Below, piece by piece: positions 2,269-51,357 of a stretch of 64,000 nucleotides of DNA. Under the pieces are notes generated by a model, which was given only the letters and a program-made list of their open reading frames with translations, was not told where the DNA came from and did no database searches. Source of the DNA: Gemmatimonadota bacterium (GTDB lineage: Bacteria; Gemmatimonadota; Gemmatimonadetes; Gemmatimonadales; GWC2-71-9); assembly GCA_025350665.1 (NCBI GenBank), contig JANXXJ010000131.1, positions 7,262 through 71,261 on the forward strand, given 5' to 3'. Within the stretch, counting starts at the first letter, position 1. Every line of letters starts with the position of its first letter. The translations under genes were made by a program, and so were the position numbers.

Positions 2269-4575
2269 ATGACAACGCCGAGCCGGCCTGGTCGGTGGGG
2301 TTCCTCCTTGATCCTCGGTGCAATCTTCGCGGCCGCAATCGGCTACGCCGCCAAGGGGCCGCCCCGCGCTCTGCCGGCCACCGCACCCGACTCGGTGTTC
2401 TCAGCCGAGCGCGCCATGGCTCACGTCCGCGCAATGGCCGAGCGGCCTCATCCGCCCGGCACGGCGGACCACGCGCGCGTCCGGGACTACGTCGTCGGCC
2501 AGCTCAAGGCCCTTGGCGTCGAACCACAGATCCAGGCGACCACGGCAATCGGGACCCGGTTCCAGGAAGCCGGCCGGGTCGAGAATGTCATGGCGCGGCT
2601 CCCCGGAACGAAGCCGGGAGGTCCGGCCGTCATGCTGGCAGCGCACTACGATGGCGTCGGGGCCGGGCCGGCCGCCAGCGATGACGCCTCGGGCTCATCC
2701 GTTCTGCTGGAGACGTTGCGGGCCGTGAAGGCCGGCAGCCCGCTCGAGCACGATGTCATCTTTCTCTTTACCGATGGTGAAGAAGCCGGGCTGCTCGGTG
2801 CCGCCGCCTTCGTGGCTGAGCATCCCTGGGCCCGCGACGTCGAAGCGATCCTGAACTTCGAGGCCCGCGGCACCGGCGGCCAGGCGGTCATGTTCCAGAC
2901 CGGTCCCGGTAACCTCGACCAGATCCGGCTTCTCCGCCGGCTGCCCGACATCTCCGCCACCTCGCTCTCGGTGACGGTCTACCAGTTTCTGCCTAACGAC
3001 ACCGATCTGTCTGAATTCTTCACTCTCGCCAAGCCGGGACTCAATTTCGCCTTCGCGGATGGCGTGGAGCGGTATCACACATCCGAAGACGATGCGGCCC
3101 ACATCGACCCGGGCACCATTCAGCAGGAAGGCGCCGCGGCCCTTGGCATGACCCGGGCGTTCGGCCACGGCCCGCTGCCCCGACCGAAGACGGACAACGC
3201 GATCTTCGTCGACCTTCCGGTGTCCGGCCTCGTGGTCTATCCGGAAGGCTGGGCCCGGCCGCTCGCGATTCTGGCCGCGCTGCTGACGATCGCCGCTCTC
3301 GTGCGCACTGCCCGCCGGGAGCCGCGATGGCTCCTCGGGCTCGTGCTGGGTCTGGCCGGACTGGTCGTGGCCACGGCCCTGGGCGGCGCAGCGGCCTACG
3401 GATTCACCCGATCCGCGCCGGCGGGCGTTGCCGCGAGCGGGGCCCGCGGCACAATGGCGATTGGCCTCGGACTGCTCGGTTTGGGATTCTCGTTCGGTTG
3501 CTGGGCCATCGTCCGACGCTGGGTCGGGCCGGCCGCGGCGTCACTGGGACCGCTCCTGGTGTGGACCGGACTCGCCGTGGCGGCGAGCTGGAAGCTCCCG
3601 GGCCTGTCATTCGTTGTGGCCTGGCCGGCCATCGCGGCGGCGCTCGTGGTCGTGATCGGGACCGATGAACGATCGTCACTGGCCAGTCGCGTCCTCCAGT
3701 GGCTGCCCGCAGTGGTCACGGCGTTCCTGCTGATGCCCATCCTGTACGGCATGGGCCTGATTGCCCTCGGCATCGCGGGCCCGGGCGGGATCGCGATCGG
3801 CGCGCTGGTTCCCTTCATCGCCGGGCTCCTGGCGCCCGATCTCGAGGCCGTCGCCGGCGACCATCGGTGGCGAACCGCGTTGGCCGTTTTGGCCGTCGGA
3901 CTGATCGCGGCCGTGGCGGGTCGGGCCATGGGCAGCCGCGCAGCCTTCCCATCCCGGTCGCTGGTCGCCTACGCCCAGAGCGCCGACGCGGCCGACGCCT
4001 GGCTCGTCACCGCGGCTGGATACGCCGGCGCGGGGAGTTGGAACGCGGCTGCCATCGGTGCCGCCGCCCGGCGAGTGGAGCCGGACGGCGCGGATGTTCC
4101 CGGCAATCCACCGCACTGGCTCACCCGGGTCGGCGGGGGCCGGTTCCCGGTCGTGGCCGGCGCGGCGCCGCGGGTCACCCTCACCGCACCATCGGTCACC
4201 GTGACGACGGACACCATCACCGAGGCCGGCCGACGGATCACCCTCCACGTCGGCACGGCACCGGGAACGAACGCGGTGCTGCTCCATGTGACCGGGACCC
4301 CGGTACTCGCCGCGGCGGTCGACGGCCGCACAGTCGATCCGAGCCGCTATCGTTTCAAAACGCCCGAGTGGCAATTGACGTACTGGGGCCCGGCAGACTC
4401 AGGGTTTAGCCTGACCCTTACCGTCGCGAACGGTTCGCGACCGGTGCTCGAATTGGCGGCGCAGACGTCCGGGCTGCCGGTCCTGCCCGGGGTGACCATG
4501 CCGCCCCGGCCCGCCGGCGTGTTACCGAGCCAGACCGGCGACATGACCGTCGTCTACCGCCGGGTCGAATTCTGA
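2269..4575 (+). CDS. membrane-anchored M28 family metallopeptidase
   Basis: 768 aa. The N-terminal domain has the M28 motifs (MLAAHYDGV..GPAASDDASGSSVLLETLRA...VIFLFTDGEEAGLLGAAAF). It is followed by about 8 hydrophobic helices and a C-terminal soluble domain. Confidence 0.8.
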   Translation: MTTPSRPGRWGSSLILGAIFAAAIGYAAKGPPRALPATAPDSVFSAERAMAHVRAMAERPHPPGTADHARVRDYVVGQLKALGVEPQIQATTAIGTRFQEAGRVENVMARLPGTKPGGPAVMLAAHYDGVGAGPAASDDASGSSVLLETLRAVKAGSPLEHDVIFLFTDGEEAGLLGAAAFVAEHPWARDVEAILNFEARGTGGQAVMFQTGPGNLDQIRLLRRLPDISATSLSVTVYQFLPNDTDLSEFFTLAKPGLNFAFADGVERYHTSEDDAAHIDPGTIQQEGAAALGMTRAFGHGPLPRPKTDNAIFVDLPVSGLVVYPEGWARPLAILAALLTIAALVRTARREPRWLLGLVLGLAGLVVATALGGAAAYGFTRSAPAGVAASGARGTMAIGLGLLGLGFSFGCWAIVRRWVGPAAASLGPLLVWTGLAVAASWKLPGLSFVVAWPAIAAALVVVIGTDERSSLASRVLQWLPAVVTAFLLMPILYGMGLIALGIAGPGGIAIGALVPFIAGLLAPDLEAVAGDHRWRTALAVLAVGLIAAVAGRAMGSRAAFPSRSLVAYAQSADAADAWLVTAAGYAGAGSWNAAAIGAAARRVEPDGADVPGNPPHWLTRVGGGRFPVVAGAAPRVTLTAPSVTVTTDTITEAGRRITLHVGTAPGTNAVLLHVTGTPVLAAAVDGRTVDPSRYRFKTPEWQLTYWGPADSGFSLTLTVANGSRPVLELAAQTSGLPVLPGVTMPPRPAGVLPSQTGDMTVVYRRVEF

Positions 4576-25727: not shown

Positions 25728-25874
25728 GCGGCGGACCTCGCCCCTTGCGATTTTCGAGCGTTAGGATATGCAAAAAGAAGGGCCGGAAAATCCCCCCCTT
25801 CCGCATTGTGAAAAACGGGCGCATAATAGGGCCGGAACGTCAACCAACTCACCTAACCGTAGCGGAACTTCCAC

Positions 25875-26153
25875 ATGGCTACCCGTCGACCTTCGACCCG
25901 GTCTCGGACCACGAAGACTCGAACTCGTTCGACCTCGAAGATTCCGGGCATCTCCCGCATCGACCAGGCCAGCACCCGGACCTTCGGGTGGTTCTGTCGC
26001 TTCGGATACCGGCCCACCCCGAGCGGCACGCGGCCCAAGTTCACCGCGTTCTTCGGTGACGCCAGCAATGGCGGCAAGAAGAAGGCGTTCGACAAGGCGC
26101 TGCTGTGGCTCAAGGCGGTGCAGCGGACCGGCAAGCCGCCCAAGAAGAAGTAG
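25875..26153 (+). CDS. small basic protein (92 aa), possible AP2/integrase-type DNA-binding fold
   Basis: Third-codon positions are strongly G/C from codon ~23 onward in this frame. The motif GISRIDQASTRTFGWFCRFGYRP....KFTAFFGDASNGGKKKAFDKALLWLK resembles bacterial AP2-like proteins. It has a basic S/T/R N-tail and a K-rich C-tail, and a hairpin terminator follows. Confidence 0.45.
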   Translation: MATRRPSTRSRTTKTRTRSTSKIPGISRIDQASTRTFGWFCRFGYRPTPSGTRPKFTAFFGDASNGGKKKAFDKALLWLKAVQRTGKPPKKK

Positions 26154-35405: not shown

Positions 35406-35932
35406 TGCCCGCCGATCTGCGCTATCCCATCGGCCCGTTCGTCTTCGCCGATACGTTCACCGAAAGCGACCGGCGCGAGGCCATTGGCAGGATCAAGACG
35501 GCGCCCGCTCGGTTTCGCGCGGCAGTCGCGGGCCTCGATGACCCGGCGCTCGACACGCCCTACCGGCCCGATGGCTGGACGGTGCGGCAAGTCGTTCACC
35601 ACGTTGTCGACAGCCACCTGAACGCCTACACTCGCTGCAAGCTGGCCCTCACCGAGGACCACCCGACCATCCGGCCATACGACGAGGCCAAATGGGCCGA
35701 ACTCCCCGACTCGCGACGCCCGCTCGTCGGCTCCCTCGGCCTGCTCGACTGGCTCCACGAGCGGTGGGTCAGTCTGCTCGAGGCTACGCCACCAGTCGAG
35801 TTCTCCCGCACGTTCTACCATCCGGAAGGGCGAATCTCGGTCAGTTTGGACCGCATGGTGGCCACCTACGCCTGGCACGGAGACCATCACCTTGCCCACA
35901 TCACCGACCTCCGCCGTCGCCAGGGCTGGTAA
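35405..35932 (+). CDS. YfiT/DinB-family putative metal-dependent hydrolase (bacillithiol-transferase-like)
   Basis: 175 aa. Has LRYPIGPF......Y.PDGWTVRQVVHHVVDSHLNAY.R.KLALTED.PTI.PYDE..WAEL...YAWHGDHHLAHI, the classic YfiT pattern. Confidence 0.8.
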   Translation: MPADLRYPIGPFVFADTFTESDRREAIGRIKTAPARFRAAVAGLDDPALDTPYRPDGWTVRQVVHHVVDSHLNAYTRCKLALTEDHPTIRPYDEAKWAELPDSRRPLVGSLGLLDWLHERWVSLLEATPPVEFSRTFYHPEGRISVSLDRMVATYAWHGDHHLAHITDLRRRQGW

Positions 35933-36551
35933 CGCGCTGCGAACCGGCCGCGGCTTGGCGGTGGTCCTCACGGCGGCAGCCCTGATGATGGTGGTCGGTG
36001 GAGATTGGGGCGGCCAGGTCGCAACCTATCTGCCCTGTCGGCGAAACTGGGGCTGGCTCCCGTCCTACCAGCCCCGAGTCAGCCCCATCCGGTCCGCAAC
36101 CACAAGTCTCGGGACCGTGCGGATCAAAGTGTGTTACGGGGCCCCGGAATCTCGGGGCAGGCGAATGCTTGGCGGCTCGCTCGTACCGTTCGGGCGGCTT
36201 TGGCGGACCGGGGCGAACGAACCCACCACCCTCAGACTAGGAGGGTCCATCGTTCTTGGCGGCATTACGATTGGCGCCGGCAAGGTTTCCCTCTACACCA
36301 TTCCTGGCCCAGAGACCTGGGAACTGATCATCAATCGCTCGACCAGTCAGTGGGGCCTCGAATCAGAGTACGTACCCTCGGTCGCAGCCCAGGAAATCGG
36401 CAGGGTCGTACTGCCCAGCCAAACCACCGAGGCGCCGGCCGAGGAACAACTGCGGTTCGCGTTCGAACCGGGCGCCAAACCTCACGAGGCCGTTCTCGTC
36501 ATGGCGTGGGAAACGACCCGCCTTCGGATTCCGGTCCGGCTCCCGCCCTGA
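35892..36551 (+). CDS. DUF2911 domain protein (start uncertain)
   Basis: Has ...KVCYGAPESRGRRMLGGSLVPFGRLWRTGANEPTTL.....GKVSLYTIPG.ETWELIINR. The TTG at 35892 overlaps the previous gene by 41 nt. The true start may be slightly downstream. Confidence 0.65.
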   Translation: MPTSPTSAVARAGNALRTGRGLAVVLTAAALMMVVGGDWGGQVATYLPCRRNWGWLPSYQPRVSPIRSATTSLGTVRIKVCYGAPESRGRRMLGGSLVPFGRLWRTGANEPTTLRLGGSIVLGGITIGAGKVSLYTIPGPETWELIINRSTSQWGLESEYVPSVAAQEIGRVVLPSQTTEAPAEEQLRFAFEPGAKPHEAVLVMAWETTRLRIPVRLPP

Positions 36552-36680
36552 CGTCGGCGACTGATCAGCCCGCAAAATCCAAAGCCGGGCCCTCCGGATT
36601 CTTGGCGTTTGCCCTGTCGGGATGGCTCGGACCGAGCCGGGTGAAAGAACCTGACTATCGCCGTTCGATTATCGTCTGCT

Positions 36681-36880
36681 CGACATGAGAATATTCACAA
36701 TACGACGTCGTTTACATTTGTTATATTGCTCAAATATATACAGTTACATGACTTTAACTAGCGATTTCAATGTTAGGAGTCTTAAACGCAACGTCGACTG
36801 AATATTTGTCGAATCAATTTAACATAATATCACGTTTCGTCTTCGATTTGCGCCAACCAGAAAAAACAAGCCCAAGATAT
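36681..36880 (+). promoter_or_regulatory. AT-rich island with palindromes and sigma70-like promoter (TTTACA-N18-TATATA at 36711-36740)
   Basis: I hand-counted 69 G/C in 200 nt. Palindromes are GAATATTC (36689-36696) and ACGACGTCGT (36702-36711). A partner arm lies at 36789-36807. The island sits directly upstream of the 36950 gene. Confidence 0.45.
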
Positions 36881-36949
36881 GCAATGCCTCGTCACGATGA
36901 CTCGCGCCCGCATATCGGGCTGCCCGGGATCAGCCAAGGATTTCTGAAG

Positions 36950-39874
36950 ATGGCGCAAGAGGCACGAACCGAAACGGCACCCCCCACCCCCTCCAAATCG
37001 GAGGCGAAGCGCCCGGCGAACCTCCGGCGCCGATTCCAGTTGCGGACCCTGCGCGACCGGCTGGTGGCCGCCGTAGTCGTTACCGGCGTGACGATCGCCC
37101 TCGGAGCGGCCTTCTTGCTCGGTCGCGCCGCGCTCGCCGTTCGTGATCTGGAACGCAACCAGTACGCTGGCATGGCTTCCGAAACCCGGATGCGCCTCGA
37201 TCGGCTGGTCAACCGCGATCGCTCGCGGTTGATCGAAGCCGCCTACTCGGACCAGCTCTACGCCCAAGTCGGTCGTGGCATCGCGCCTCCCGACTCCATG
37301 ATCCACCCGCCATTCGGCAATCAATTCCCCTCCCAGTTCGGAGACCGGTTCATCGCCGTCTACGACCTCGCCGGAAAGGCCCTGTACCGATGGACCGATG
37401 AGTCCCTGCCCGACGTCGAACACCTCGTCACCGGCAACGCCCTCTTTCGAATGCTCGACAATCGAGAGCCCACCATCGGCCTGGTCCGCAACGGCGAGGA
37501 GCTCTATTGGGTCGGGGGTGTCCCCGTCCTGCCGACCAATTTTACCGATCAGACCCAGCCGATTCGCGGCTATCTCGTCGTCGCCCAACGCTTCAATCCC
37601 GCCACGCTGGCCCCTGGCACCGGTGACCGCTCGGCTCGCTTCGAACTGGCTCCGCTCGCCAACTTGAAAACGCCGTTTCAGACCCGCGTCGACGCGGCTG
37701 GCAGTCGTGATAGTGTGCGCGTCACGTTCTCGCTCCCGGACGTCTTTGCTCAGCAAACGACGCTCGCCACGCTCACCACGGGCCGGGCCGAGTACCGAAC
37801 GATCGAATCGACCCTGCGCTGGCTGATGCTTGCGGCCGTGATCGGTGCTGCCGGGATCGCCGGCGGCCTGTTCGTCGCCGCCAGACGCTTCCTCGTCGAG
37901 CCGGTTTCTCGTCTGTCGGCGGCCATGGTCCCGTCCCAGAACAATCCATTCCCGTCGCTGATCGGTTCGGTCTCGACCGCCAAGGAATGGAACCGGCTGA
38001 CCGGCGCCATCAACCGGCTGTTGACCCACAGCCGAGGCAGTCAGGATCGGCTTGACCGCCTGACCGGGGTCACGGCGGACGGAGCGTTCGAACGGGACCT
38101 GAGCACCGGTGACTGGACCGTCAGTCCTCGATTCCGTCAAATGCTCGGCCTGGCAGGACCAGAGCCACTGCCTGCCGTCCTCGGCGAAAAACTCGCCCCG
38201 GACGAATCGATGAATGAGTTGATGGCCTGGCTCCAGGCGGAGTCCCCTGAGCCACGTTCGTTCGCGCGGACGATCATTCGCCGAGCCGGAGGCGAGCCCC
38301 TCCGGTTCGAAGCCACGGTCGGTACGGACACAGCCGGCGTACCCAACCGCATCACGGGACGGATCTCCGATCCAGGCGCGGAAGTCGCCTTGCAGGACAC
38401 GCTGGCCAAGGCTTCGGCCGAACGCGACGCCGGACGGGCTGCCCAGGGCCGCTTCCTCGCCGCGATCGCCGAATCGTGGGCCGCTAGGCCCACGCCACCC
38501 GCCGAAACCATCGAGCACCTCCGAACGATCGGCGCCGGGCTCGAAGGGACGCTCGCCGCCAAGGCCGAGGAATTCGACCTGTACGCGCTGCTCCAGGAGC
38601 TCGCGAACCTTGAGCCCGGCGCCGACCTGCGGATCGTACCGGGAGTTCCCGAGCAGGTCGCAGGCGATCGCCGGCTGCTGCGGTCAGCGATCCTGGCCTT
38701 CCTGGGCACCGCCGACCGAAGCACCCGGGCGGTCTTGCGAGCCGATCAGCCAAACCGACTCGCACCCGACCGCGTTCGAATTGCGGTCGAGGACCATCGG
38801 GTCATCCCGGTCGCTGAGGCGGCGGTGATCAGCCGCACCCTCGAGACCGGCGACGCCGGGGGGACGGATCCGCAGCTCGACTGGCGTGCCGTCCACTTCC
38901 TGGCCCAAGCCCTCGGTGGGACGGCCGCACTGACCATCGATGGCGACCTCGCGACCCGATCGCTCACGGTCCTTCTGCCTGAGGTGGCAGCAGCAGCGCC
39001 CGCTGCGCCGGAAACGGTCGACCCGGTAGCCGATCCCGTGTTGTGGGCCAGCGACAACGCCGACGCCACCTTTCAAGAACCGTCCCAGGGGTCCGATCGG
39101 CCGTCGCGGGCGGAACCCGTCATCCAACTGGTCGCCGACGCCACCGTCACGATCGATTTCGATCGCGACATGACCGTTGACGACGTCGCCATCGGCGCTC
39201 AATTCGCCGGCGACCTCGCAAAGGGAACGGATGACGCGGTCCGAACCGCCAGGATCGCTTTGGCCGAGATCCCGGCCCGTCTGCGCCAGCTGCGCGGCGG
39301 CGTCCAGGCGGGGGAAGCCCGCACCGCCATCGAGAACGCCATCGCCATCGAGCGCGTCGGTGTGCTCCTCGGCGCGACCGAACTGACGCATCGATGCCGC
39401 GATCTGATCGACGCTGCCGAGCACTCCTACCTCGACACGGCGGAGCAACTGCTGACAGGCCTCGACCAGGCCTGGAGTCGAACCGGTGATGCACTCGGCC
39501 CGATGTTCGCGTCGCCCGCGCCGGAATCGCCGGCCATTGACCCGGCCACGCTCGAACAATTGATGGCGTCGCTCGGCGAAGGCGCGCTCGGTACTCAGCT
39601 CGTCACGTTGTTCGTCGGCGAGGCCCCGGAACGAATCGAAGCCATCGGGCGCGCGGCGGCCGCAGGCAATCTGGTTGAAGTCGGCACCCTCGCCGAAGAC
39701 CTGAAGGGGATGTGTGGGCTCGTCGGCGCACTGCCGATGGCACGCCAGTGCGATCTGACCCGGTTGGCGAACGGCACCGGTGCTGTCGTCACCGCGGTCG
39801 GGGCCTTACGACACGAATGGGAACGAGTCCAGCGGGTACTGGATCAACTTACGAGCGCCCGGATTGGCGCCTGA
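36950..39874 (+). CDS. membrane sensor with degenerate histidine-kinase core (TM, CHASE4-like periplasmic domain, TM, HAMP-like, PAS, His-less DHp, degenerate HATPase, two His-less Hpt-like bundles)
   Basis: The start is ATG 36950, or alternatively 36884. The 36770 ATG lies in AT-rich sequence with atypical codons. TM1 is VAAVVVTGVTIALGAAFLLG. The periplasmic block ..IAVYDLAGKALY..ELYWVGGVPVLP..IRGYLVVAQRF is CHASE4-like. TM2 is LMLAAVIGAAGIAGGLFVAA. The PAS-like block is GAFERDLSTGDWTVSPRFRQMLGL. The H-box position reads GRFLAAIAESWAARPTP, with no His. Confidence 0.75.
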   Translation: MAQEARTETAPPTPSKSEAKRPANLRRRFQLRTLRDRLVAAVVVTGVTIALGAAFLLGRAALAVRDLERNQYAGMASETRMRLDRLVNRDRSRLIEAAYSDQLYAQVGRGIAPPDSMIHPPFGNQFPSQFGDRFIAVYDLAGKALYRWTDESLPDVEHLVTGNALFRMLDNREPTIGLVRNGEELYWVGGVPVLPTNFTDQTQPIRGYLVVAQRFNPATLAPGTGDRSARFELAPLANLKTPFQTRVDAAGSRDSVRVTFSLPDVFAQQTTLATLTTGRAEYRTIESTLRWLMLAAVIGAAGIAGGLFVAARRFLVEPVSRLSAAMVPSQNNPFPSLIGSVSTAKEWNRLTGAINRLLTHSRGSQDRLDRLTGVTADGAFERDLSTGDWTVSPRFRQMLGLAGPEPLPAVLGEKLAPDESMNELMAWLQAESPEPRSFARTIIRRAGGEPLRFEATVGTDTAGVPNRITGRISDPGAEVALQDTLAKASAERDAGRAAQGRFLAAIAESWAARPTPPAETIEHLRTIGAGLEGTLAAKAEEFDLYALLQELANLEPGADLRIVPGVPEQVAGDRRLLRSAILAFLGTADRSTRAVLRADQPNRLAPDRVRIAVEDHRVIPVAEAAVISRTLETGDAGGTDPQLDWRAVHFLAQALGGTAALTIDGDLATRSLTVLLPEVAAAAPAAPETVDPVADPVLWASDNADATFQEPSQGSDRPSRAEPVIQLVADATVTIDFDRDMTVDDVAIGAQFAGDLAKGTDDAVRTARIALAEIPARLRQLRGGVQAGEARTAIENAIAIERVGVLLGATELTHRCRDLIDAAEHSYLDTAEQLLTGLDQAWSRTGDALGPMFASPAPESPAIDPATLEQLMASLGEGALGTQLVTLFVGEAPERIEAIGRAAAAGNLVEVGTLAEDLKGMCGLVGALPMARQCDLTRLANGTGAVVTAVGALRHEWERVQRVLDQLTSARIGA

Positions 39875-49862: not shown

Positions 49863-51213
49863 CCGCTCGGCGCGACCAGTACCAGTACACTGGAACGCCG
49901 AGCCCGATCAGCCCGATGCCGCAGGCCGCGTTCCCCGGGTTGGAGGCGACGGAGCCCGCCACCACATAGATCGCCGCCGCGATGAACAGGAGTTCCGGAA
50001 TCGGGGAACCCGGGGTCTGGAAGGCAGGCGGTGCCTCGTTGGCTCGCCGGCTCCGGGCTCGAAGGAACAGGAGAGCGGCGGCCGTCGAGCCGAAGAAGAT
50101 CCAGTCGGCGAACACCACATAGTCGAGGAGATGGCCATAGCTGCCGCTGGACAGCAGAACGACCGACCAGGCGCCCTGAAAGAGGATGGCCACGACCGGC
50201 GTCCGCCATCGCGGGTGCAGACGCGCAAACGACTCGAGAAACAATCCATCTCGCGCCAGCGCCTGATAGACGCGGGGCGAAAGCAGGGTGATGGCATTGA
50301 GGAAGCCGCCGGTCGAGATCACCACGCCCAGCGCGATCAGCTTCCGGCCCAGCGGACCCATCACCGCTCCGAGCGTTTCGGCGGCCGGAGCGGTACTCGC
50401 CGCCAATCCCCCGACCCCGAGTACTCGGAGGTAGGCGGCATTCGCCGACAGGTAGACAAGGACCACTACCGCGACACCAAGGAGCAGGGCACGGGGAAGA
50501 TTGCGCTCCGGCGCGATGATCTCCTCCGCGATGAAATTGGTCTGCTGCCAGCCGCCATAGGCGAACAGCACGGGCACGAAAGCCGTGGCCATGGCAAGGA
50601 CAGTCCCCGCCAGACTGGCGGGCGCCGCCACGGTGCAGTGATCACAAACCACCGGAAGGACGCCGCTCGCCGGGCTGAGCCACAGGCCGGCCCGGATCAG
50701 CAGGGCGAGCGCCCCCAGTTTGAGCAGTACGAACACATTTTGAGTCCAGGCACCCAACTGGACCCCGAAGAGGTTGACGACCGTAAAGATTCCAATGGCA
50801 CCGATCGCAAGTGGAGTCCGGAAGGAGGGAGCCAGCCCGAACAAATCGGCGGCGTAGGATGCGAAGGTGTAGCTCACCGCGGCCCCGGCCCCCGTCGCCA
50901 TGATGAGCAGAAGGGCCCAGGCATACAGAAACCCGGCCAGCGGATGAATGCCGGCCCGGAGGTAGGCGTATGGTCCCCCGGCCTTCGGGAGCCGGCATCC
51001 CAACTCGGCATAAATGAACCCGCCGAGAATGGCGACGACGCCGCCCAGGACCCAAGCCAGCAAGGTGAGCGATGCGGTGCCGACCCGCTGGGCCACGATC
51101 GCCGGATTGAGGAAGATCCCCGATCCGATGATCCCGCCGATGACCGACATGGTACCACTGAACAGGCCGAGACGCCGGGCGTAGCTGACCGGCTCGGCCG
51201 GGGGACTGGTCAC
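49849..51213 (-). CDS. APC superfamily amino acid permease
   Basis: I trimmed the 939-aa fused ORF to GTG 51213 (GGAGA-N5-GTG). It has the family-typical N-terminus ..RRLGLFSGTMSVIGGIIGSGIFLNPA and about 12 helices. The upstream part of the ORF is antisense to the aminotransferase gene. Confidence 0.85.
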   Translation of the reverse strand: MTSPPAEPVSYARRLGLFSGTMSVIGGIIGSGIFLNPAIVAQRVGTASLTLLAWVLGGVVAILGGFIYAELGCRLPKAGGPYAYLRAGIHPLAGFLYAWALLLIMATGAGAAVSYTFASYAADLFGLAPSFRTPLAIGAIGIFTVVNLFGVQLGAWTQNVFVLLKLGALALLIRAGLWLSPASGVLPVVCDHCTVAAPASLAGTVLAMATAFVPVLFAYGGWQQTNFIAEEIIAPERNLPRALLLGVAVVVLVYLSANAAYLRVLGVGGLAASTAPAAETLGAVMGPLGRKLIALGVVISTGGFLNAITLLSPRVYQALARDGLFLESFARLHPRWRTPVVAILFQGAWSVVLLSSGSYGHLLDYVVFADWIFFGSTAAALLFLRARSRRANEAPPAFQTPGSPIPELLFIAAAIYVVAGSVASNPGNAACGIGLIGLGVPVYWYWSRRAATGA

Positions 51214-51357
51214 AGGTTTCTCCAGGAATCGAGACGGCAGGCCCCTCAATAGTGGCGCCGATTCGGGCCCAAGGCGAGGTGCCTTGGGGCTGGGCGCCTG
51301 GCTCGCCCAGCCGGGTTGGGATACAATTGCATATCGTTCCTCTTCCCGGAGCCGCCA

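Follow-up and report, generated by a model that had tools for sequence, protein, structure and literature searches.

A deeply conserved, fixed-length A+T-rich island upstream of a CHASE4-HPt sensor gene in Gemmatimonadota

The DNA analysed here, a 64,000-nucleotide (nt) stretch of a Gemmatimonadota contig (JANXXJ010000131.1; the whole stretch is referred to below as the window), contains a single A+T-rich island, situated directly upstream of a gene encoding a sensor protein with CHASE4 and HPt domains. Comparison with orthologous loci gave good support for the conclusion that the island is a real, selected and deeply conserved non-coding stretch of fixed length in front of the sensor gene. 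Its unusual feature is that exact length and composition have been kept over ∼300 bp through very deep divergence. We propose that the island forms the core of a locus-specific, ∼380-bp multi-site transcriptional control region of the operon encoding the sensor and a hybrid histidine kinase, kept in a Gemmatimonadota clade; the chances that this proposal is right seem to us evenly balanced.

The composition of the entire 64 kb was examined with sliding GC windows of 100, 200 and 300 nt and a finer pass with 40-nt windows. Against a GC content of 66.8% for the window as a whole, the only stretch falling below 50% (100-nt windows) was found at positions 36620-36921. The minimum was 30% at position 36685 with 100-nt windows and 34%, with the same start, with 200-nt windows; these values lie ∼7-9 standard deviations under the window mean. 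In the 40-nt pass, a GC content of 35% or less was reached solely at 36680-36856. The composition dip is real and far beyond chance. These results agree with a preliminary description of this DNA, in which the island had been recognised by eye as the only one of its kind in the window, and the hand count given there (69 G/C residues in the 200 nt of 36681-36880) proved exact. The genes on either side have a normal GC content (63-72%).

The region was compared with 17 distinct orthologous loci (individual loci are designated by L numbers) on contigs of Gemmatimonadota metagenome-assembled genomes and metagenomes, spanning 35-80% amino acid identity in the sensor. Every orthologous locus showed the same dip directly in front of the sensor gene, and no other real stretch under 50% GC. 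A seeming second low-GC region in L002 (7161-7260) is a 100-nt run of N, i.e. a scaffold gap, inside the kinase gene. In all 17 loci the dip is accompanied by five boxes, also upstream of the sensor gene and in fixed orientation. In the window, the island and the parts of the element discussed below are located as follows.

36620-36921, no strand assigned: A+T-rich island, with its core (at most 35% GC) at 36680-36856
36572-36584, plus strand: box 1 (consensus GCAAAATYCAAG, here GCAAAATCCAAAG), the distal boundary; core invariant in all orthologues and unique in the window
36775-36796, plus strand: box 3, AGGAGT-N8-CAACGTCG (conserved as AGT..CAACnnCG), ∼33 nt upstream of box 4; its G, T, A, C and C columns are invariant
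36818-36830, plus strand: box 4, TTTAACATAATAT (core AACATAA at 36821-36827); core invariant in 16 of 17 loci and unique in the window
36831-36859, plus strand: variable, GC-richer spacer from box 4 to the A-run; A+T fraction 0.31-0.46 across orthologues, identity mostly 0.2-0.6 (at or below the neutral proxy), no conserved helix
36860-36886, plus strand: box 5 with its A-run, GAAAAAACAAGCCCAAGATATGCAATG (pattern GCCCnAnnnATGCAAT), the most conserved block
36887-36949, plus strand: leader, variable in length and sequence, with a Shine-Dalgarno sequence AAGGA at 36936-36940 and a folding z score of ∼-0.15

The box 5 pattern is matched exactly once in the window and once in each of the 17 loci scanned, always on the sensor strand. 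It was also matched in L022, and L024 carries the variant TTATGCACC. Metagenomes were scanned with a composite pattern of boxes 3, 4 and 5, and the matches listed were all sensor-linked copies except for one chance match in an AT-rich ferredoxin gene; position weight matrix scans of the 64 kb for boxes 1, 4 and 5 detected no second site. Since the pattern and matrix scans yielded only sensor-linked copies, apart from that chance match, the element is locus-specific. A miniature mobile element or repeat family is not supported: there is one copy per locus, no second copy in the 64 kb, and no terminal inverted repeats.

The distances between the boxes are nearly as constant as the boxes themselves. 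Of 17 distinct elements, 16 have box 1 and box 5 separated by 296-298 nt and one, L017, by 284 nt; box 3 and box 5 are 92 or 93 nt apart, and box 4 and box 5 are 48 or 49 nt apart. In most loci the leader between box 5 and the start codon measures 61-81 nt, and in L017 it reaches 107 nt. Between groups A and B, the two main ones by sequence, two 1-nt indels offset each other, so that the total length is unchanged.

The sequence between the boxes has drifted. Pairwise identity of the inter-box segments is 0.35-0.6, compared with 0.47-0.68 at the 4-fold degenerate sites of the sensor gene in the same pairs. For box 5 the corresponding value is 0.81-1.0 in most pairs (0.59-0.67 in comparisons with L013 and L015), with 0.4-0.68 at the 4-fold sites. 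Because inter-box identity is no higher than that of 4-fold sites, selection acts on the boxes, their spacing and the A+T richness, and not on the intervening sequence. Averaged over the orthologues, the A+T fraction lies at 0.55-0.7 between positions -160 and -50 (counted from box 5), reaches its maximum of 0.81 on box 4, and drops to 0.3-0.45 immediately downstream. A peak at box 4 followed by such a drop is as expected of a promoter/transcript boundary.

Several further features were observed in and around the boxes. In three divergent loci, L013, L015 and L017, the A-run preceding box 5 (AAAAACAA) is replaced by (A)TTTTGCG (e.g. L013, 3827-3836), which is a perfect 7-8 nt reverse complement of each locus's own box 1 (GCAAAAT); in the other loci, box 1 looks directly repeated in the A-run together with CAAG. 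The most divergent locus, L017, alone has a 13/14 inverted repeat around the A+T core (CAAACGCGGCTGGA at 3482-3495 and TCCCGCCGCGTTTG at 3727-3740), for which we estimate a chance expectation of ∼0.006 and which was not seen at these positions in other loci. In the window, the stretch from box 1 to the A+T core includes a GC-rich near-perfect palindrome, GGCTCGGACCGAGCC (36624-36638), which the orthologues do not share.

The island lies in a 398-nt gap between two genes transcribed in the same direction.

35892-36551, plus strand: DUF2911 gene (Pfam DUF2911, E 1.4e-33; stop codon 36549-36551, start codon uncertain), the upstream neighbour and not part of the element
36950-39874, plus strand: gene of the CHASE4-HPt sensor, 974 amino acids (Pfam CHASE4 and Hpt), with the start set by the database protein P0001 and homologue coverage

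A hybrid histidine kinase gene with an HPt domain directly follows the sensor gene, starting at ∼39889. The usual gene order, found in most loci, is amidase – hypothetical protein – DinB – DUF2911 – sensor – kinase – BNR/sortilin protein. The long open reading frame (ORF) 36770-39874 was considered as the sensor gene and was ruled out by the start of P0001: this database copy of the sensor (974 amino acids, 100% identical) begins at ATG 36950, and all homologues align from there. Since the P0001 start and the homologue alignments place the sensor start at this ATG, 36770-36949 is not translated as the sensor N-terminus, and the earlier view of the island as non-coding stands. A 38-amino-acid ORF at 36685-36801 was likewise rejected as a small protein or leader peptide, as all orthologues have stops in every frame and share no common peptide. 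A mini-ORF ATG-CAA-stop at box 5 was also discarded, since ATGCAAT is followed by TAA, TAG, TGA, TGC, TGG or TAC depending on the locus.

The DUF2911 gene lies upstream at all loci except L017 and the locus of the sensor homologue P0015. In these two divergent lineages (L017, 2805-3460) it is missing and the sensor gene follows the DinB gene with a gap of 470-500 nt; the homologue of the P0015 lineage has additional Pfam matches to HATPase_c domains. L017 still carries box 1 in spite of lacking DUF2911, so the element goes with the sensor and not with the upstream neighbour.

Given this conservation upstream of the sensor gene, a regulatory role of the island, as put forward in the preliminary description, is likely. 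The palindromes and the promoter on which it had been based did not hold up. All of the strings are present where they were reported, and an 8-nt inverted pair, AATATTCA/TGAATATT, was found as well. The two candidate elements are located as follows.

36689-36711, no strand assigned: palindromes GAATATTC (36689-36696) and ACGACGTCGT (36702-36711), present but unconserved and probably due to chance
36711-36740, plus strand: promoter candidate TTTACA-N18-TATATA, not conserved and missed by the consensus scan

We estimate that ∼1 perfect 8-bp and ∼0.3 perfect 10-bp palindromes are expected by chance in 220 nt of 65% A+T. The two palindromes are thus within expectation, and the corresponding positions of L006, L002, L007 and group B lack them. 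The imperfect inverted repeat that had been described with arms ∼80 bp apart has no counterpart even in the closest relative (L006/L001), whose sensor is 80% identical to that of the window; the same holds for the palindromes and the promoter candidate. Within its second arm, CAACGTCGACTGAATATTT (36789-36807), the segment CAACGTCG (36789-36796) overlaps conserved box 3, and the rest is without counterpart in the orthologues. Canonical sigma-70 promoters have hexamers near TTGACA and TATAAT separated by a spacer of 16-18 nt, and their -10 hexamer has A in second and T in sixth place. The proposed TATATA lacks this final T, a sigma-70 consensus scan of 36300-37200 returned no sites, and the orthologues carry no matching hexamers at this place. 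An operator pair for a looping repressor, also suggested earlier, finds no basis in these palindromes; it is conceivable only in an altered form that would use boxes 1, 3, 4 and 5.

We favour a nucleoprotein control region because the boxes are invariant, their spacing is exact, the DNA is A+T-rich upstream of box 4 and of normal GC content downstream, short repeats lie on one helical face, and no RNA structure was detected. Box 4 (AACATAAT), with its overlapping hexamers nAACAT and CATAAT, would serve as the -10-like element for RNA polymerase; each locus has at least one box 4 hexamer with A at position 2 and T at position 6. As no -35 hexamer was recognised, initiation would depend on a sequence-specific activator, which may bind box 3, at ∼-46 to -38 from the predicted start, and replace the -35 contact. 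Activators that substitute for this contact usually bind at such positions. Transcription would start in the spacer at 36831-36859.

Two pentamers occur ∼3 times as often as expected: AACAT was observed 40 times (expectation 11.7) and ACAAC 34 times (expectation 11.1). Their plus-strand copies lie at 0, -33, ∼-84, -147 and -187 from box 4, near multiples of 10.5 bp, with a Rayleigh R of 0.50 at a period of 10.5 compared with 0.11 at 11 and 0.30 at 10, values that are inflated by shared ancestry. These further AACAT/ACAAC-type sites on one face of the helix may also be bound by the activator, in an auxiliary capacity. Upstream of box 4, the A+T-rich DNA of 120-150 bp could act as an easily bent or melted, UP-element-like spacer, and box 1 (∼-260) and box 5 (∼+30 to +50, within the leader) could provide extra protein contacts, box 5 being either an operator or an RNA-level site. 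The frozen length with drifting sequence would follow if exact distances among boxes 1, 3, 4 and 5 must hold. A natural candidate for the regulator is a response regulator fed by the same phosphorelay, which would make the system autoregulatory.

One other locus may illustrate the promoters of this lineage. A conserved TACAAT lacking a good -35 hexamer occurs upstream of an aminotransferase gene in three relatives, which suggests, from this one example, that sigma-70-type promoters dominated by the -10 element are used here. In the window this motif lies at 51300-51345 (plus-strand reading GGGATACAATTGCATATC), in the gap between a class-III aminotransferase gene, whose ATG follows ∼30 nt downstream, and the divergent permease gene; it is conserved in L028 and L025.

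Several observations weigh against such a control region. The -10 role of box 4 is something we infer, and sigma-70 scans of four orthologues found no site at a shared position. L009, L011 and L015 read CATAAC in place of CATAAT, so the overlapping nAACAT would have to serve there. The helical-phase statistic represents about four independent positions, mostly from one subgroup, and the 10-11 bp periodicity of AA/TT, the usual sign of intrinsic bending, was not found; nor was any WW periodicity of this length seen, so intrinsic DNA curvature was not borne out. Indels of ∼10 bp, which ordinary looping tolerates, are almost absent from the element. There is no gene for a DNA-binding regulator in the conserved neighbourhood. 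Finally, a role at the RNA level would account just as well for the invariance of box 5 within the presumed transcript.

The RNA-level role was examined by searches and folding. A search of Rfam 15 with the island gave as its sole match a eukaryotic small nucleolar RNA (17 bits, compared with a gathering score of 95), so that no family was matched. At the gathering score there were no matches in the window and seven loci, and none at E ≤ 1 in the L014 element. No tRNA or tmRNA was found in the window or the loci, and no terminator at 36300-37200. Mean folding z scores of 15 orthologues against dinucleotide shuffles were -0.65 (plus strand) and -0.88 (minus strand) for the A+T core; the segment between box 4 and the start codon gave -0.15, and the region of box 1 gave -0.37. 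RNAalifold predicted no pairs between boxes 3 and 5, the best-aligned 120 nt, and weak, inconsistent or empty consensus structures for the whole element with both MAFFT and gap-free alignments on both strands; global minimum free energy folds were not comparable among orthologues.

Individual helices fared no better. GGAGT/ACnnC in box 3 is 80% paired, yet in roughly half of the sequences its two variable pairs are disrupted, and neither has changed on both sides. CAUAA/UUAUG, joining boxes 4 and 5, is invariant and hence uninformative. A hairpin after box 3, which includes the CGAC..GTCG noted earlier, has 48% of cells paired, no better than the control slid by -3. A minus-strand intrinsic terminator at box 1 (hairpin plus AUUUUGC) was rejected because in most orthologues the hairpins do not adjoin the T-run. 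A stable structured RNA is not supported, and neither is the structured leader listed among the possible roles in the preliminary description.

An unstructured RNA is a different matter. The island could be transcribed as a ∼120-380 nt, A/U-rich and weakly structured leader or small RNA, whose single-stranded boxes (e.g. AAAAACAAGCCC..UAUGCAAU) would be the target of an RNA-binding protein, or of a small RNA, that controls translation, stability or premature termination of the sensor mRNA. We regard this as possible, if on the improbable side. It would account for the position of box 5, the best conserved block, at 61-81 nt from the start codon and thus within any plausible transcript, and for the single orientation of every box relative to the gene; the A-run plus CAAG of box 5 also resembles (ARN)n motifs of the Hfq type. 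In the close relatives L010, L014, L016 and L020, CAAGCCC could pair with GGGCUUG at the ribosome-binding site, and L013, L015 and L017 have the perfect box 1 complement just before box 5, but each of these complementarities is confined to a minority of lineages. The missing Rfam match, the absence of compensatory changes, the weak consensus energy and z scores of -0.15 to -0.9 all count against it, and an unstructured RNA fails to explain a fixed 297 nt beside a leader of variable length.

The remaining explanations concern the DNA itself. A landing pad for an AT-preferring nucleoid silencer (H-NS-, Lsr2- or MvaT-like), keeping the operon off until counter-silenced, would fit the retention, in every lineage, of A+T richness and not of sequence over ∼150 bp set in DNA of 67% GC; moreover, a TCGAT core, which resembles the H-NS nucleation motif TCGATAAATT, recurs near -205/-208. 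We consider it distinctly unlikely as the main function: the genes are no recent imports, as judged from synteny in most loci, deep lineages and flanks of normal GC content, and five boxes with spacing fixed to the nucleotide are not needed for composition-driven binding. To our knowledge, no protein of this type is recorded from Gemmatimonadota, and no search for one was made here. A silencer pad can nevertheless coexist with the proposed control region as one of its layers. The earlier suggestions of a scar of foreign DNA, or of silencing of horizontally acquired genes, conflict with the synteny, the presence of the element at 35-49% sensor identity and the normal flanks. Neutral leftover DNA, such as an old insertion scar or a decayed gene, might seem compatible with the nearly neutral evolution of the inter-box sequence and with the lack of any detected ORF, RNA family or repeat family. 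We give it virtually no chance, as A+T richness, length and boxes are kept in 17 of 17 loci, some of them at only 35-49% sensor identity, and the comparative data effectively refute it.

A site-specific recombination device, i.e. a fimS-like invertible promoter or a target of Xer or another tyrosine recombinase bounded by boxes 1/5 or 4/5, appears highly improbable. The E. coli fim switch measures 314 bp, and the ∼297 bp of A+T-rich DNA upstream of the sensor gene are similar in size. Inverted relative to each other, boxes 4 and 5 (TTATGCAAT for the latter) share CATAA/TTATG, which does not vary among the loci. On the other side, these arms are 49-50 bp apart instead of 6-8 bp, with no XerC-type arm at the proper distance; there are no conserved terminal inverted repeats, the best ones at the element ends differing in position and sequence from locus to locus and being mostly at chance level. 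All assemblies have box 5 on the sensor strand and the same box order, and no recombinase gene occurs in the conserved neighbourhood. Box 4 was compared with E. coli dif, which includes the XerD arm TTATGTTAAAT (PMC3025954). ATTTAACATAATAT (36816-36829) matches the reverse complement of the 3' end of dif at 14/14 positions, covering the XerD arm and 3 nt of the central region; the reverse complement of 36816-36826 is identical to TTATGTTAAAT (11/11). Box 5 carries the inverted TTATGC (36877-36885), and the sequence beside box 4 is GAAGACGAAAC|GTGATA, which is unconserved. The dif-like flank of box 4 is conserved only in the closest group (A), and outside it, as in group B, TTATGTT alone is kept. 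Box 4 was rejected as a dif site because of the distance between the arms (49-50 bp compared with 6 bp) and the lack of an adjoining XerC arm.

A sigma-54 promoter at box 5 was also considered. Sigma-54 promoters have GG at -24 and GC at -12 (TGGCAC-N5-TTGCW); box 5 has AG or CG where GG is required, and the expression TGG[CT][AC]-N6-[TCA]GC[AT] had no match in 15 elements.

Part of box 5 recurs elsewhere in the window. GATATGCAA occurs three times in the 64 kb, at 25766-25774 (plus), 36877-36885 (plus) and 51339-51331 (minus), compared with an expectation of ∼0.1, and each copy lies 70-120 nt upstream of a gene start in the same orientation (the ORF at 25875, the sensor gene, and an amino-acid permease gene with a GTG start at 51213). 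As a shared regulon or promoter motif it was rejected, since its TATG part is not conserved at the permease locus in relatives, where TACAAT is the conserved block; a shared function of the three copies is doubtful. The ORF at 25875-26153 (plus) encodes a small, very basic protein of 92 amino acids (MATRRPSTRSRTTKTRTRSTSKIPGISRIDQASTRTFGWFCRFGY...) and has the high GC content at third codon positions of a real gene; by eye, we take its product to resemble AP2-type DNA-binding domains.

In the searchable literature we found no description of the element, of Gemmatimonadota promoters or RNA motifs, or of the sensor. The element is a new, lineage-specific example of a known general kind, the complex upstream control region. 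A bolder idea is that box 1 to box 5 form an undescribed "measured" cassette, ∼297 bp of DNA that must be A+T-rich and whose sequence drifts freely while its length is kept exact by selection between invariant boxes at the two ends; it would be specific to a CHASE4-HPt phosphorelay of Gemmatimonadota. Such a cassette might be wrapped or looped on an oligomeric regulator, possibly one derived from a recombinase and reading CATAA/TTATG half-sites, or might represent a new class of length-constrained A/U-rich leader RNA. We think this unlikely, though not negligibly so.

Gemmatimonadota is a widespread soil and freshwater phylum with few cultured members, whose transcription signals and regulation are barely known. 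Five boxes with exact spacing in front of a phosphorelay provide a handle for finding the cognate regulator and the promoter type of the phylum. Should the constraint be architectural (wrapping or looping), the element would be a clean natural case of selection on DNA geometry over sequence; should it be merely a complex promoter, its interest would be local.

Comparison with known systems places these possibilities in context. In contrast to dif/Xer sites, which are tied to the replication terminus, the island is tied to a particular gene. It resembles fimS-type switches (E. coli fim, Bacteroides invertons) in comprising ∼300 bp of A+T-rich, length-constrained DNA directly upstream of a gene, with half-site-like motifs; the length constraint of fimS reflects synapsis assisted by IHF and Lrp. 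Unlike these switches, it has no flanking conserved inverted repeats, no orientation polymorphism in 17 assemblies and no adjacent recombinase gene. The sharp A+T island over a putative promoter region (30-34% compared with 66.8% GC) recalls those bound by H-NS, Lsr2 or MvaT in GC-rich genomes, but the island is ancient, occupies an orthologous position, extends over ∼250 bp, has fixed-spacing boxes and is flanked by DNA of normal GC content. With leader RNAs and riboswitch-like 5' untranslated regions it shares a long conserved non-coding stretch before the start codon, invariant blocks and a single orientation; it differs from them in lacking consensus structure, covariation and an Rfam match, in its near-random folding energies, and in being A/U-rich in a GC-rich genome, the opposite of usual structured RNAs.

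The remaining comparison is with activator-dependent sigma-70 promoters (PhoB/OmpR-type; UP-element-assisted). Here the differences are that the architecture of the island spans ∼300 bp, with boxes from ∼-260 to ∼+40, that its spacing is exact to the nucleotide over very deep divergence and so far stricter than usual, and that its motif matches no known pho, OmpR or other box. The likeness lies in a box 4 that is proposed as -10-like, without a recognisable -35 element, a box 3 centred ∼35-45 bp upstream, short motifs repeated on one helical face, and A+T-rich DNA upstream with GC-normal DNA downstream, all preceding a two-component operon, a class that is often autoregulated.

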